Below are positions 6,954 through 16,107 of a stretch of DNA of 64,000 bases, piece by piece (position 1 is the stretch's first letter; the number at the start of each line of letters is the position of its first letter). The stretch lies in the IMG/VR virus record IMGVR_UViG_3300040770_000547, one strand, 5' to 3'. A program made the position numbers and the translations under genes. Source of the DNA: a virus. The notes beneath the pieces were generated by a model. That model worked only from the letters and a program-made list of their open reading frames with translations. It was not told where the DNA came from and did not search any database.

Positions 6954-6980
6954 AAAGGGCAGCTTCGCCTAGTCTTATTA
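6954..6980 (+). promoter_or_regulatory. early-cassette motif copy 1 (AAAGGGCAGCTTCG-N5-YCTTATYA)
   Basis: Exact core, ~54 nt before ATG 7021. Confidence 0.75.
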
Positions 6981-11399: not shown

Positions 11400-12005
11400 A
11401 TGTCAAAATCAAGCACGATTAGTTTAGATGTATTAAATGCATTAAGCCCACAAAAAGGAATGTTGAACGCTTCAGTTAAGGAGCTAGAGAACCAAGTATT
11501 CACTTTTCATTCTATAGTTGCACCTGCTGAGAAAACTGCGGATCTTACTGCTGTCAGCGATGACAACTCGTATGTGAAAGCTCGTTATATCAATTCAAAA
11601 ACAAAGAAGAGTTTCTTGATCCCAATCAGAGGATTATTGAATCTTGGAATTGTTCAGATGGGTACAACTAAAGTGAAAGCATTAGACCCTAAAGCAGAAG
11701 TTGCAAAAGTGAATGATTATTTACTTGAGAAATCAACTGATGGTAAAGGAGTGAGTCTTCCAATGTCTTTCTATGTAGTTTCTGTCAAAGATAGAATCCA
11801 AGAAAGCACTGGGAACATTATGTACCCTCCGTACTGCTACCAAGCGTTCTCTGATGAGATTGAGACGCTTAGAGCGACAGATCCTAAAGCGGATTTGGGT
11901 CCTATCTACCAAAATTATGACTTTATGCAGTCATTATATGCTGGAGAAAGATCTGCTCGCTACGCCACTGCGGAAGCAACTAAAGACATAGTTATCTCAG
12001 TTTAA
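11400..12005 (+). CDS. hypothetical early protein with YPPxCY motif (start moved from 11295)
   Basis: MSKSSTIS start after an A-rich leader; IMYPPYCYQAF. Confidence 0.78.
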   Translation: MSKSSTISLDVLNALSPQKGMLNASVKELENQVFTFHSIVAPAEKTADLTAVSDDNSYVKARYINSKTKKSFLIPIRGLLNLGIVQMGTTKVKALDPKAEVAKVNDYLLEKSTDGKGVSLPMSFYVVSVKDRIQESTGNIMYPPYCYQAFSDEIETLRATDPKADLGPIYQNYDFMQSLYAGERSARYATAEATKDIVISV

Positions 12006-12035
12006 TCCCCAAAGGATTTAATAATGATACTATTT

Positions 12036-12079
12036 ACTCTCATACCAGACCATGTGTCCGGTGTGGGAGTTCTTTTTTT
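12036..12079 (+). terminator. intrinsic terminator closing the early cassette array
   Basis: ACTCTCATACC/GGTGTGGGAGT then T-run. Confidence 0.8.
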
Positions 12080-12222
12080 GTCCTTTTTCAACAATACACC
12101 ACTAAAAAGCACCTGACATTGCACCATTCATCCATAGGTTTATATAACATTACCGTCTTTTTCAACAACAAACTACCCATTTCCTCTTAACAAACTGGAT
12201 TTATACTCGATATCGAGTGTAT

Positions 12223-12471
12223 TTATCTCCCGATTTGTAATAAATAACAGGAAATAAGTGTATTTTTGGTTCGTTGATAACAGGCAAAAGCGATGAGTAC
12301 AAAAAATTGAATAATAACGTTAAGTATAAAAAGGAGATCCTCGATTACTGAAGAAAGTAAGTAAGTCGAATGGGTTAACCCGAGTAAGAACACAACGATA
12401 AAAATATAGTTAATCAGTCCACAGCCTTCCAGGAACAAACACACTTGTTTTTCCATAATTATAAGAGTCAT
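12223..12471 (-). CDS. possible small membrane protein on the minus strand
   Basis: Hydrophobic 82-aa ORF with no competing + ORF; 14-bp palindrome ACTCGATATCGAGT (12205-12218) just past its stop. Confidence 0.3.
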   Translation of the reverse strand: MTLIIMEKQVCLFLEGCGLINYIFIVVFLLGLTHSTYLLSSVIEDLLFILNVIIQFFVLIAFACYQRTKNTLISCYLLQIGR

Positions 12472-12478
12472 TAATCAC

Positions 12479-12893
12479 GTCAGACAAGACCGCGAAGCTT
12501 GTTTGACTGGGTTAGTTACTAAAGTACCAATCCCTGGTCGGCGAAGGGAACTGAGGTTAGAAAAAACTGCGAAGCAGCAGGCTGAATGCAATGTGATGAA
12601 GTACAGTAATCATGTTAGTAAGTCTCTCCCGAGTAGATTGAGTATAACGATTTACAATATTAGCCCCGGATATAGGTTGATTACCTTACCCTGTATCAGA
12701 TAGACACGTTTCATCGTCGGGCAATAACAAAAAGTCCAGAGTGCACATAGGTATATGAAAATTAAGAACCTACCTGCATTAGATTTATTAGAGAATCGTC
12801 TGGCAACAATAAGTCCTGAGTGGATTGCATGATACGTCATACAACCTCGAGCTCTTCATAAGTGGAGAGCTTTACAGGCTTATAGAAAAGTCC
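12479..12893 (+). ncRNA. candidate ~415-nt structured ncRNA (unknown class)
   Basis: 10-bp hairpin at the 5' end, several further stems, no convincing ORF. Confidence 0.55.
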
Positions 12894-13012
12894 GGAATTA
12901 ATCTTGACGCTGATAGTATGTGCACATATAATTTCAGTTGAGGTACGAGAGATAATCATAAATTAAGTTGTACAGCTTGATTCAATGAAAGGGTTCGATT
13001 CCCGAATTTCCG
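12894..13012 (+). ncRNA. tRNA-like element with non-canonical interior
   Basis: GGAATT/AATTTCC ends, GGGTTCGATTCCC T-loop, followed by GCA; no anticodon arm. Confidence 0.45.
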
Positions 13013-13076
13013 CATAATATGGAGAACTTCAGAAGAGCTATCCAAGTTTAATAAACCATTTAATAACCAAACCATT

Positions 13077-13202
13077 ATGAAAAAGATTTTGTTTTTATTC
13101 GTATTGGCTTTCAGTCTGTTTTCCTTTATGGGAGCTAGAGACTATGTGAAGCCTGTTTCAAGTCATGAAGCTGTATTTGTAGGAAGTACTAACTTTCCCT
13201 AA
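13077..13202 (+). CDS. small secreted peptide (41 aa)
   Basis: MKKILFLFVLAFSLFSF signal-peptide-like start; A-rich leader. Confidence 0.55.
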   Translation: MKKILFLFVLAFSLFSFMGARDYVKPVSSHEAVFVGSTNFP

Positions 13203-13386
13203 AGATCTACAACGGTACAATCAAAAAAGCCGAAGTTCCATAAGGAAAGACAAAAGAATTAGAATACTGCAGGCCTCCTTTATAGTTTGGAACGAGCCTG
13301 AAGTTAGAATTAACATTGTGTATAATATCGTTGCAAGCACAGACTTAAAATCTGGATACTGACAACTATACTATATATAAAATCTA

Positions 13387-13433
13387 AAAATACCCTTGAG
13401 AGGCGAGTGCCGTTTAGGACTCAAGGGTATTTT
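13387..13433. terminator. 14-bp perfect hairpin
   Basis: AAAATACCCTTGAG/CTCAAGGGTATTTT. Confidence 0.65.
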
Positions 13434-13501
13434 ATTAACATGGGGAGGCAACTAAGCTTTCTAATATTACGAAGCCGTGTAATAATATGCATTATAAAAG
13501 C

Positions 13502-13584
13502 GGGTAAGTACTCTAGAAAAGGCGTTATTGTTTGTCGCGGTATACAGTCGGCATACAAGATGGGTTCGATTCCCTACCTATCCA
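13502..13584 (+). pseudogene. degenerate tRNA-like element (possible TGT/Thr remnant)
   Basis: GGGTAAG/CCTATCC-A-CA ends, GGGTTCGATTCCC; arms weak. Confidence 0.35.
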
Positions 13585-13589
13585 CAAGA

Positions 13590-13830
13590 TTGTTCATTGA
13601 CGTATTATGAGTTTTTGCAAGACGGGAGTTCGACTCTCCCCAACTCCACAAATCGAAGACCGTGTATGTTGTCGATGGTGTAGCTAGCCGATATACAAAT
13701 AGCCGAACTTATGGGGTTGCCTGGTTTTGATTGCAATACACAAGTTTTACTGAGAATAGTCCCAACTATAACTCCAAAAGTTATACAACTTTTTAGTGCA
13801 GCTGATTTAGAATTAGCAGCCTAAACGAAA
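13590..13830 (+). ncRNA. ssrA: circularly permuted (two-piece) tmRNA
   Basis: 3' end GACGGGAGTTCGACTCTCCCCAACTCCA (13621-13648) precedes 5' end GGGGTTGCCTGGTTTTGA (13713); G3:U70 pair; tag frame ending ...ADLELAA-TAA (13824). Confidence 0.88.
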
Positions 13831-13833
13831 CTT

Positions 13834-13860
13834 GGGGGAGCGTCAATCCCCCTTTCTTTT
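13834..13860 (+). terminator. terminator after tmRNA
   Basis: GGGGGA/TCCCCC stem then T-rich tail. Confidence 0.7.
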
Positions 13861-13879
13861 TACTCTAAACCCCAAACAC

Positions 13880-14221
13880 ATGAAAAACGAAACACTACCT
13901 AATCCAAAGATTACGAGAACTCGTAATTCTGTGAATGTAAATTGGTTATCTGTATATAATGGTAACTCTGATAACGTTATTCAAATTACATCAAAATCCG
14001 AGTTCTTTAATACTCCTCTTGTTTATAAAGTAACAGAGGATTTAATTATACTTAGAAAAGTCACTATACGAGATAACAAAAGAATAGTAGTACCTAAAAA
14101 AGGCCGCGATTCTGAGTTTTATCGCATGAGCATCATAACTAAATTTGAAATCGAAAACAACAGATACGATTTTGAATTTGATGAAGATGATGAGGATGTA
14201 GTATCTGCTTATTATAAGTAG
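13880..14221 (+). CDS. hypothetical protein (start MKNETL)
   Basis: A-rich leader before ATG 13880. Confidence 0.75.
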   Translation: MKNETLPNPKITRTRNSVNVNWLSVYNGNSDNVIQITSKSEFFNTPLVYKVTEDLIILRKVTIRDNKRIVVPKKGRDSEFYRMSIITKFEIENNRYDFEFDEDDEDVVSAYYK

Positions 14222-14249
14222 CATATTTGTAAATTAATTGAGATCTTTG

Positions 14250-15190
14250 AATTGAAATAACGGCTTGGCGAGCGAAACGTGGGCCGTGGTTCAAAGAATA
14301 TACAACACTAGTCCTGGAATTCCTGGCAAGCCTATGAAGATAGGAACTTGGTAGAGGATAGAGGCACGTAATCCTTCATATTGCATCGGTACAAATAAAC
14401 AAAACCGAGCCGCACAACACCGTGATTCTTTTAGATAACGGAATATGATTGACTACAACCGGAGCAGCACGGATTCAAACTAACTGTACTGTGTCGAACA
14501 GGATGAAATCGATTGATGCTAGCCGTAAGGCAACTAACATCTTGTTGCATTTAAAAAGGGACAAGAAATGATAGGGATTCTGCAGGATCCAGCTATTGAA
14601 TAAGGGTAAGAATAATATCCCCTTAGAACCTCGCTGACACCAGCCAAGTCAGGAGAACAAATCGGGTGGCATCCCTCTAAGCATAAGGAGAACAACAATG
14701 CGCATTAGCATAAGGTGTACAACAATGCAAGTACTGTCGGCCAGCCATGTCAGCTTGGACCCAAAAGTTGGAGTTGATAACTTTGCCGGCAAGTACTTTA
14801 ACCATGCTGAAAAGCAATTGCAAGGAGACTATTAGGTACGTCTTCCCAGAGTAACGTGTGCCAACACCCTGGGTATCTTAGGTCAAGGATGCAATACTTT
14901 TCATAAAGTCTATAATCTGCGATAACAGAATGAATACATCAACCGCGCAACAAGGCGAGTTTAGTTTTTTAGTATGTGAGCGGTAGACACAACTACACAC
15001 AACAAACAAAGATTGCTACTTAAGCTAGTTTATGAACAGCGACTCTGACTCGGGCATCTAATGTACCGGCTAACCTTACAGAGAAAAAGGTGTAATCCCT
15101 TGCCAGTATGATTTTTAGGCAAATGCAAACTTCGTCAATGTTCCTTAGCGTTCGGGTATTAAGTATAAGATAGCATAAGCCTAAAAGTTG
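14250..15190 (+). ncRNA. candidate ~950-nt large structured ncRNA
   Basis: No ORF of 60 aa or more in any frame, elevated GC, many stems with GUAA/GAAA tetraloops and a 13-bp long-range helix. Confidence 0.7.
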
Positions 15191-15192
15191 TT

Positions 15193-15271
15193 GGGGCATT
15201 AGGGCATCAAGGGATTGATGTGATGAGCTGTAACGGAACTCAGCAGGCAGGTTCGATTCCTGTTAGCCTCA
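15193..15271 (+). ncRNA. tRNA-like element lacking a normal anticodon arm
   Basis: GGGGC/GCCTC-A ends, GCAGG-TTCGATT-CCTGT T-arm, two internal hairpins. Confidence 0.5.
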
Positions 15272-15287
15272 CTATTTTAACAACATC

Positions 15288-15585
15288 CAACGCTCAAAGG
15301 AATTAAGAGGGCAGGCGTTATAGTGACCCGCCGAGAATGAATGGTCACTGAATTTCTAAGTAGTAATGGTCATCTTAAGATACCTGAGTAGAGTGAGTAG
15401 TAAGAGTGGTGCCTATATGGTATTTCTGAAATGAACGTAGTAGCTCAAAAAGGCAGATGGACTCAATAGAGAAGATTATTATTGAATTTGCGTGTTCGTT
15501 CAGTCCAGTTTGCATAGCAGGATCGCGCACGTTAAAAACTAAGGTAGGAGCAGTCATCAAGTATGGTGATTGTCTCCCCTTTTTT
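15288..15585 (+). ncRNA. candidate ~300-nt structured RNA ending in a terminator-like hairpin
   Basis: AGTGACC/GGTCACT, GGACT/AGTCC and GGAGCAGTCATCA/TGGTGATTGTCTCC stems. Confidence 0.4.
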
Positions 15586-15612
15586 GTATACTAAGAACTA
15601 ACAACAACTAAC

Positions 15613-16107
15613 ATGGAAGAGTATGTAGATTACCTGAAAGGGAAAATTCAAGAATGCGAGCTGGAAGATATGCACGTATCTGTGTCTGTTTACAAAGAAG
15701 TACTAAATACTTATTTAAGTTTCCTTGATGCCGCCAAGCTGAAAGCATCGTTACATAATAAAGTAGGCATAGTTACAGCAGGCTCAAGACAATTTGGTAA
15801 AGCTGCCAGATTTGCAGAGCTCTATGGTATGATGAAACCTGCAGTTCACATCATGGTGGGCAGCAAAGAGATGCATGACAATATGGAAAAAGCACTTATT
15901 GATGCTGTAGAGCATGTAAAGAATGCACCTATTCAAGGAAGATTTACAGACGCTTTTGAAAAAGAACGCGGTATGAGCATAAACGAGTCCATGGCAAAAG
16001 ACAACAGTATAATGATTACTGCTCTTCCAAAGATGACAAAGCCTCTACTCCCGTTGGATAAATATGGCCAACCGCTTGAATTACCTAAATCCAAATACCA
16101 CAAATAA
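15613..16107 (+). CDS. hypothetical protein
   Basis: Co-oriented ORF, A-rich leader. Confidence 0.78.
   Translation: MEEYVDYLKGKIQECELEDMHVSVSVYKEVLNTYLSFLDAAKLKASLHNKVGIVTAGSRQFGKAARFAELYGMMKPAVHIMVGSKEMHDNMEKALIDAVEHVKNAPIQGRFTDAFEKERGMSINESMAKDNSIMITALPKMTKPLLPLDKYGQPLELPKSKYHK

Follow-up and report, generated by a model that had tools for sequence, protein, structure and literature searches.

What occupies some 950 nt of a phage genome in which no gene is apparent? The question is raised by positions 14250-15190 of a 64,000-nt stretch of DNA from IMG/VR virus record IMGVR_UViG_3300040770_000547 (the whole of this stretch is called the window below, and all positions refer to it). A first-pass annotation had described the region as densely base-paired and proposed a non-coding RNA on the scale of the phage RNAs GOLLD and ROOL, possibly of a new class. 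The analysis presented here retains a non-coding, selected region with structure on the + strand, but not a single giant RNA, because relatives hold separate modules of it. In our view, 14237-15190 probably makes up the bulk of a conserved, structured and modular non-coding RNA of the + strand, which would be made within a longer precursor, processed, and bound by host factors.

The stretch 14250-15190 is non-coding. As the first-pass annotation had stated, it has no open reading frame (ORF) of 60 aa or more on either strand; the largest ORFs encode 59 aa (15020-15199, - strand) and 54 aa (- strand), and reading TAG as Q, TGA as W or TAA as Q opened no convincing frame. Substitutions were counted between the window and L001, which carries the only diverged syntenic version of the stretch (flanking proteins 63% and 82% identical). 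They are distributed evenly by position modulo three in 14222-15195 (81/79/73, p 0.8), and codon periodicity was absent from every 150-nt sub-window of this interval. The corresponding counts by codon position in the two flanking genes are 37/36/86 and 31/17/90, with an excess at third positions. Neither an open frame nor a third-position substitution bias was thus found in the stretch under any code. The surroundings, on the other hand, are not gene-dense as had been claimed: an ORF-poor zone extends over 12005-15612 (~3.6 kb), and its sole interruption is a small ORF (13880-14221) that has no counterpart in L001.

Although it encodes no protein, the stretch is under selection. The window and L001 versions are 76% identical over 971 shared columns, i.e. 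24% of sites are substituted, about half the rate at third codon positions of the flanking genes (45-52%), and seven blocks of 26-43 nt are 100% identical between the two. This reduced rate and these blocks support the action of purifying selection on the stretch. The large insertions and deletions that separate the two versions coincide with whole hairpins. L001 carries insertions of at least 8 nt after positions 14479, 14735, 14889 (123 nt), 15052 and 15063, and the arm 14729-14816 is replaced in its entirety; to judge from the alignment, this is the pattern expected of variable hairpins grafted onto a conserved RNA core. Seven further relatives (L002-L007 and L045) are 94-97% identical to the window and full of small indels, and as noisy assemblies are uninformative.

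To what extent is this RNA folded? The dense base pairing described earlier is not evident in the single sequence, whose minimum free energy (MFE) on the + strand lies within chance (z -1.5; z +0.3 on the - strand), but comparative folding does depart from chance. We applied RNAalifold to the columns shared by the window and L001, with 100 column shuffles preserving the pattern of conserved and variable columns as the reference. The consensus MFE of the + strand was -172.6 kcal/mol vs. -128.4 +/- 8.1 kcal/mol in the shuffles (z -5.5), and 23 compensatory pairs were seen vs. 13.2 +/- 3.3 (z 3.0), a number reached by only one of the 100 shuffles. The signal was much weaker in the reverse complement (z -2.1 for consensus energy and z 0.9 for compensatory pairs), and we therefore assign it to the + strand. 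In a second test, independent of alifold, the structure was predicted from the window alone and the L001 substitutions were permuted among like bases. The outcome was weaker but agreed in direction: double compensatory changes were again in excess (14 vs. 7.5 +/- 2.5, p 0.016), and fewer pairs were broken than in the permutations (74 vs. 84.8 +/- 5.7, p 0.035). The covariation to which the first-pass annotation had looked for confirmation is thus present above chance on the + strand in this pairwise comparison, and the data give moderate support to a secondary structure that has been maintained by compensatory changes more often than chance would allow.

The well-supported portion of this structure consists of the local hairpins at 14260-14287, 14459-14472, 14540-14566, 14630-14655 and 15108-15191, plus several invariant helices (Table 1). 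The hairpins at 14540-14566, 14630-14655 and 15108-15191 each bear one to three or more double changes; the window and L001 versions of the first of these fold alike, and the last has three compensatory and two one-sided changes in the MAFFT register. Of the stems listed in the first-pass annotation, all of which occur in the sequence, CTGAC/GTCAG and GCC-GTAA-GGC are supported, but L001 has lost CCCAG/CTGGG, CCGTG/CACGG and TTGCC/GGCAA. Two others, the 13-bp stem at 14729-14798 and the TGCT-GAAA-AGCA hairpin, lie inside the segment that is replaced in L001.

The most distinctive part of the stretch is a tandem hairpin. The internal near-duplication reported at 14680 and 14708 is exact as described, and no such match occurred in shuffled sequences. 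It comprises two copies of A-GCAU-AAGG(A/U)G(A/U)ACAACA-AUGC, with the general form GCAU-AAGGNGNACAACA-AUGC. The 13-nt loop presents a Shine-Dalgarno-like tract followed by AACAACA, which is of the CAA type seen in the leaders of the phage's own genes; the 3′ stem arm contains an AUG. Both UAAGGAG and AGGUGA are complementary to the 3′ tail of 16S rRNA, and the hairpin resembles, in its sequence, a translation-initiation site. A third AAGGUGU block is found at 15082-15108 and is conserved in both L001 and L048, another phage described below.

We searched for this module with the pattern AGCATAAGGNGNACANCAATGC in metagenomes and with a near-identical pattern in IMG/VR, which yielded 19 and 8 stretches, respectively. 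In 596 Gb of cellular genomes, there were five matches where about four are expected by chance; four of these are in ORFs or at GC-rich gene starts, leaving one credible intergenic copy, in L041. Once a few GC-rich chance matches had been set aside, the module was found in ORF-free spans of 335-1416 nt, in the same orientation as the neighboring genes, on ~25 other phage-like contigs of low GC content, where a Shine-Dalgarno core is hardly ever seen ahead of a gene. Apart from the module, no similarity between these regions and the window was detectable, and no Rfam family covers the loci that bear it. Judging from these searches, the module is uncatalogued and recurs in otherwise unrelated phage non-coding regions.

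In nine freshwater or sediment phage contigs (L011, L014, L016, L022-L025, L029 and L030), the tandem module forms part of a conserved RNA of ~430 nt, exemplified by L024:10344-10754 (- strand), in which RNAalifold identified seven covarying pairs. The second stem in this group is GCUU/AAGC or, in a G-U variant, GCUU/AAGU, and L001 has a third hairpin unit with a GUAU/AUAC stem. The 4-bp stem therefore covaries at two positions (GCAU/AUGC, GCUU/AAGC, GUAU/AUAC). It should be noted that this count is biased, since a pattern search by its design returns only paired copies, and those with GCUU/AAGC belong to one lineage, so that the changes amount to two or three independent events.

Does the stretch belong to a known RNA family? 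We ran cmscan with Rfam 15 on the window at gathering scores and on 13000-16000 at E values up to 10. There was no match within 14222-15190 even at the relaxed threshold, and the only matches nearby were an upstream transfer-messenger RNA (tmRNA) and a weak, downstream tRNA-Sec-like match. GOLLD (RF02032, gathering score 150 bits) and ROOL were rejected on these grounds, as were OLE, group I and II introns, RNase P, 6S RNA and the riboswitch classes. The first-pass annotation had left open whether GOLLD, ROOL, OLE or the introns might match; the stretch lies outside all of them as those families are modeled. Nor was GOLLD found in three IMG/VR phages that share the module.

The setting is nonetheless of the GOLLD type, i.e. 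in a phage and beside tRNA genes, with a tRNA-like element (15192-15271) on one side and a permuted tmRNA (13589-13824) on the other. Like GOLLD, the region is large, phage-borne and non-coding, has tRNA or tRNA-like genes around it, and shows many hairpins and variable insertions; unlike GOLLD, the whole unit is longer and visibly modular. ROOL, too, is a large structured RNA often found in prophages and phages near tRNAs (PMC5737381), but no motifs shared with it were recognized. RNA-only multimeric cages have been seen for both GOLLD and ROOL (bioRxiv 10.1101/2024.12.08.627333).

The main alternative, which we consider unlikely, is that 14237 to ~15062 (or to 15590) adopts one ornate, globular fold, possibly multimeric, and represents a new class of giant RNA on the GOLLD/ROOL scale. 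The pairwise consensus does contain a long-range helix (14237-14243 / 15057-15062) with two compensatory pairs (AUUAGA/UCUAAU to AGCAGA/UCUGCU), as well as helices at 14310-14316 / 15037-15044 (invariant), 14360-14364 / 14674-14678 and 14515-14519 / 14669-14673. Many A-rich loops are conserved, and a phage setting beside tRNA-like elements is typical of GOLLD and ROOL (PMC5737381; bioRxiv 10.1101/2024.12.08.627333). However, alifold helices from two sequences are weak, since shuffled alignments also yield ~13 compensatory pairs, and the single sequence has only ordinary stability.

The more telling evidence comes from relatives that have parts of the region. L037, in which the upstream protein is 55% identical, has an ORF-free island of 2.2 kb. 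Both 12003-12464 and the 3′ domain (15275-15590) have homologues there, yet nothing of 14250-15190 is present. Conversely, L048 (G001), a complete 175-kb IMG/VR phage with terminal repeats, has in common with the window only 15009 to ~15100. The match is 97% identical over 35 nt (15009-15043; nhmmer E 2e-8), lacks a partner for the long-range helix, and opens L048's own 730-nt ORF-free stretch (L048 4017-4765) at a gene/intergenic boundary. The simplest explanation for the absence of the stretch from L037, for the restriction of L048 to 15009-~15100 and for a tandem hairpin that travels alone is that the RNA is modular rather than a single fold.

Other searches returned little that bears on this question. 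Homologues of the two flanking proteins were found in metagenomes only, with no relatives in IMG/VR. Within IMG/VR, the conserved blocks around 14390, 14575 and 14940 had no match, the block around 15025 matched L048 only, and a block from the 3′ domain gave two unrelated short matches. Two more distant islands (L038 and L039) have no similarity to the stretch. The 730-nt ORF-free stretch of L048 folds no better than shuffles; it holds a GGCAGGCGG..CCCGCCGA hairpin resembling window 15300-15345, with a gene and a tRNA downstream. When the ORF ahead of the shared block in L048 and the locus itself were compared with the island by tblastn and tblastx, no similarity emerged.

The modular RNA that we favor would begin just after the terminator of the permuted tmRNA, end at the intrinsic terminator around 15590, and be transcribed as one precursor. 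Its modules (the conserved hairpins, the tandem hairpin pair, the variable arm, the 3′ domain, the closing hairpin, the tRNA-like element and the further 3′ domain) would fold independently and be kept, lost, swapped or expanded among related phages. Host RNase P or RNase Z may cleave the precursor at the tRNA-like element, and the released modules would persist as stable RNAs with host factors as their partners. The tandem hairpins could then engage the small ribosomal (30S) subunit or a protein that reads initiation regions; these are the likeliest partners because the hairpins display a purine tract, a CAA-rich leader and an AUG. Comparable RNAs are the stable RNAs C and D of phage T4, which are ~120-140 nt long and lie in the T4 tRNA gene cluster. 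They too are non-tRNA RNAs in the RNA island of an rII phage, beside tRNA-type structures, and in both cases release would presumably be by tRNA-processing enzymes; the present stretch, at ~950 nt, is far longer.

Several observations weigh against this proposal. The MFE of the single + strand sequence was equaled by 7 of 132 dinucleotide shuffles. In the structure predicted from the window alone, 74 of the 110 changed pairs are broken, the share of changed pairs that remain paired is not above chance (p 0.26), and paired and unpaired sites are substituted at an equal rate. With most changed pairs of the single-sequence fold broken, much of any predicted global fold is wrong or unreliable. L001 is the single truly diverged homologue, the other copies being ~95-97% identical and ridden with indels, so that covariation rests on a pairwise comparison. 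No promoter was identified, a sigma-70 scan scoring below the shuffled expectation; the phage's own promoter-like motif (AAGGGCAGCTTCG, see below) is absent from the island, and no listed RNA sequencing run holds the sequence. Lastly, Bacteroidia ribosomes are reported to ignore Shine-Dalgarno sequences (PMC7797042); if the host belongs to this class, the simplest reading of the hairpin loop is weakened.

The silence of the listed RNA runs would also fit an element that acts at the level of DNA, such as a replication origin, packaging site or regulatory region with protein sites or single-stranded DNA hairpins. The palindromic ends of the 21-nt unit GCAT-N13-ATGC would suit such an element, and the block 15009-15043 is placed at the gene/intergenic boundary of L048 as a promoter might be. 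We nevertheless regard it as very unlikely. The folding signal is strand-asymmetric (see the two consensus z scores above), as expected when G-U pairs matter, and the stems of the module covary, G-U variant included, whereas fixed half-sites would be anticipated of a DNA palindrome. RNA genes flank the region, a canonical terminator lies at its end, and the module is always oriented as the flanking genes are.

A structured 5′ untranslated region, in which the hairpin AUGs would start short regulatory peptides controlling the gene at 15613-16107, seems about as improbable. Each unit does have the purine tract, the AUG and a CAA leader like that of real genes, and the two AUGs of the window are in frame, opening 45 aa from 14698. 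These peptides are not conserved, however: the ORF that follows the module encodes 24 aa in L001, where the sequence beyond the second AUG is unrelated, and in the other phages its product would have 3-17 aa. There is no codon periodicity, the next gene lies beyond a terminator, and L036, which carries a distant homologue of that gene, has no such leader. Decayed genes or neutral spacer with structure arising by chance, already disfavored and scarcely tenable, would agree with a single-sequence MFE close to the shuffled expectation, but not with substitution at half the third-position rate, seven identical blocks of 26-43 nt, an excess of compensatory changes, and a lack of protein similarity in any frame to neighboring phage ORFs.

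The features of the island are listed in Table 1.

Table 1. Positions of the features in and around the non-coding stretch, with their state in relatives
Feature	Position	Strand	Description
Insertion with orphan ORF	13861..14225 (365 nt)	+	ATG 13880 to 14221, 113 aa; absent from L001
5′ hairpin	14237..14300	+	Invariant 10-bp stem 14244-14253 / 14288-14297 around a 9-bp stem
Inner 9-bp stem of 5′ hairpin	14260-14270 / 14278-14287	+	Four one-sided pair-preserving changes
Highly conserved core	14368..14460	+	41-nt and 26-nt blocks identical in L001
Core helices	14368-14382 / 14442-14456; 14386-14390 / 14404-14408	+	12 bp; 5 bp with A-rich 13-nt loop
Small hairpin	14459..14472	+	CCG/CGG to CCC/GGG in L001; one compensatory pair
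Hairpin with conserved loop	14540..14566	+	UCUUGU/ACAAGA to CUUUGC/GCAAAG in L001; three compensatory double changes
Three successive hairpins	14567..14655	+	Pairwise RNAalifold helices
First of the three	14570-14580 / 14585-14597	+	Invariant 11-bp stem
Second of the three	14601-14606 / 14620-14625	+	Invariant 6-bp stem, 13-nt A-rich loop
Third of the three	within 14630-14655	+	CUC-CUGAC/GUCAG-GAG to CUU-UCGAC/GUCGG-GAG in L001
Tandem hairpin module	14680..14728	+	Identical in L001
Variable arm	14729..14816	+	13-bp AAGTACT-GTCGGC stem and TGCT-GAAA-AGCA; a different, longer segment in L001
3′ conserved domain	14817..15062	+	Identical blocks of 38 nt (14932-14969) and 43 nt (15006-15048)
Long hairpin	15108..15191	+	Lower stem UUUUAGGC/GCCUAAAA to CACUAAAC/GUUUAGUG in L001; inner AUGC/GCAU kept
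tRNA-like element	15192..15271	+	Without normal anticodon arm; T arm GCAGGTTCGATTCCTG invariant in L001
Separate conserved 3′ RNA domain	15275..15546	+	In L037 2801-3079 (nhmmer E 4e-30) and L001 7345-7600
Intrinsic terminator	15547..15590	+	Hairpin then U-run; 22 nt before next gene (15613)

The limits of the modular unit can be placed from its neighbors. The permuted, two-piece tmRNA upstream (13589-13824, extending to 13857) scores 50.8 bits (gathering score 47), and an intrinsic terminator lies behind it at 13834-13852; the corresponding region of L001 stays below the gathering score. BLAST breakpoints at 13860/14226 correspond to 5819/5817 in L001, where the 365-nt insertion is lacking and the tmRNA terminator directly abuts position 14226, thus setting the 5′ limit of the RNA unit at ~14226-14237. 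The orphan ORF in this insertion has no match in Pfam or PHROG, is found only in near-identical relatives, and looks like a recently acquired cassette within the RNA island. At the other end, the stem of the terminator at 15547-15590 differs in sequence yet folds in the window, L001 and L035, i.e. it covaries. The terminator-ended unit measures ~1.35 kb in the window and ~1.85 kb in L001.

The tRNA-like element that the first-pass annotation had seen directly after the stretch is indeed there, with a sub-threshold tRNA-Sec score only. In this best Rfam match (21.4 bits, E 0.53, gathering score 47), the anticodon arm is missing from the alignment, and ARAGORN called no tRNA at 15192-15271; a cloverleaf with an anticodon arm, scoring above threshold or called by ARAGORN, was thus not found. 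A near-identical contig, L004, seemingly lacks both the long hairpin and the tRNA-like element (L004 2748-2812 vs. window 15103-15277), which may reflect either a natural deletion variant or an artefact of its noisy assembly. The 3′ domain that follows shows compensatory changes such as GGUGCC/GGUAUU to GCCGUC/GACGCC, and an extra segment of ~260 nt is common to L001 and L037 and missing from the window. At L036 79-1133, the gene that follows the island has its most distant homologue (49%), with another gene directly upstream of it, indicating that not every phage of this group carries the RNA island.

The assignment of the window to a phage is borne out by its gene products, which include a tail protein, rIIA-like and rIIB-like proteins, DNA ligase, thymidylate synthase (ThyA) and an SF1 helicase; all long ORFs of the window are on the + strand, and four tRNA genes lie close to its start. 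Given these products, the presence of the sequence in ice-metagenome runs and the lack of any nucleotide match to GenBank phages by blastn, the source is a large, uncultured and very divergent phage. Between positions 6955 and 11292, the motif AAGGGCAGCTTCG occurs eight times vs. 0.75 expected by chance. The copies sit within a ~35-nt conserved motif upstream of early-looking small genes, which is repeated in L001 too and is likely to be a phage-specific promoter or regulatory site.

A Shine-Dalgarno core was found upstream of 1 of 65 gene starts in one count and none of 57 in another; the gene leaders are G-poor and A/C-rich, often with AACAACTAAC ahead of the ATG. Bacteroidia start translation in this style, without use of Shine-Dalgarno sequences (PMC7797042, PMC13000457), which makes a Bacteroidota host likely. 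The same essentially Shine-Dalgarno-free genes with A/C-rich leaders (AACAACTAAC..ATG) are seen in L016, L021, L024, L027, L031, L033, L038 and L048 as well as in the window, and this suggests Bacteroidota-type hosts for the whole set of phages.

Why would a phage display a Shine-Dalgarno-like sequence in a hairpin loop when its genes do without one? Shine-Dalgarno-like stabilizers are known at the 5′ ends of Bacillus mRNAs, namely STAB-SD of cryIIIA and the polypurine stabilizer of phage SP82, where the purine tract is thought to hold a 30S subunit. As in these cases, the hairpins of the modular RNA offer a purine tract complementary to the 16S rRNA 3′ end where no protein is made; unlike in these cases, the tract is in the loops of tandem 4-bp hairpins deep within a non-coding RNA, and in a phage that does without such sequences. 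A bolder version of the proposal, which we consider quite unlikely, is that GCAU-AAGGNGNACAACA-AUGC is the signature of a hitherto uncatalogued class of long modular phage RNAs and acts as a decoy initiation site in hosts that do not use Shine-Dalgarno sequences. The hairpin would bind and retain 30S subunits that have a free anti-Shine-Dalgarno tail. Of the ribosomes of Bacteroidia, only those lacking bS21 read Shine-Dalgarno sequences (PMC9976891, PMC13000453), and the target would be this bS21-less minority. Capture could stabilize the phage RNA, or tamper with host bS21 autoregulation and the ribosome pool.

Few RNAs are as poorly understood as the large structured ones of phages, such as GOLLD and ROOL, and each independent example helps to tell what is essential from what is decoration. 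The present locus adds a kilobase of non-coding sequence from a cold-environment phage with clear signs of purifying selection and compensatory evolution, and evidence for assembly from exchangeable modules rather than inheritance as one block. With its 21 nt, the sharply conserved module could serve as a probe or bait in the search for a factor, of host or phage, that it may bind. If it is a true mimic of an initiation site, it would link phage RNAs to specialized ribosome populations.

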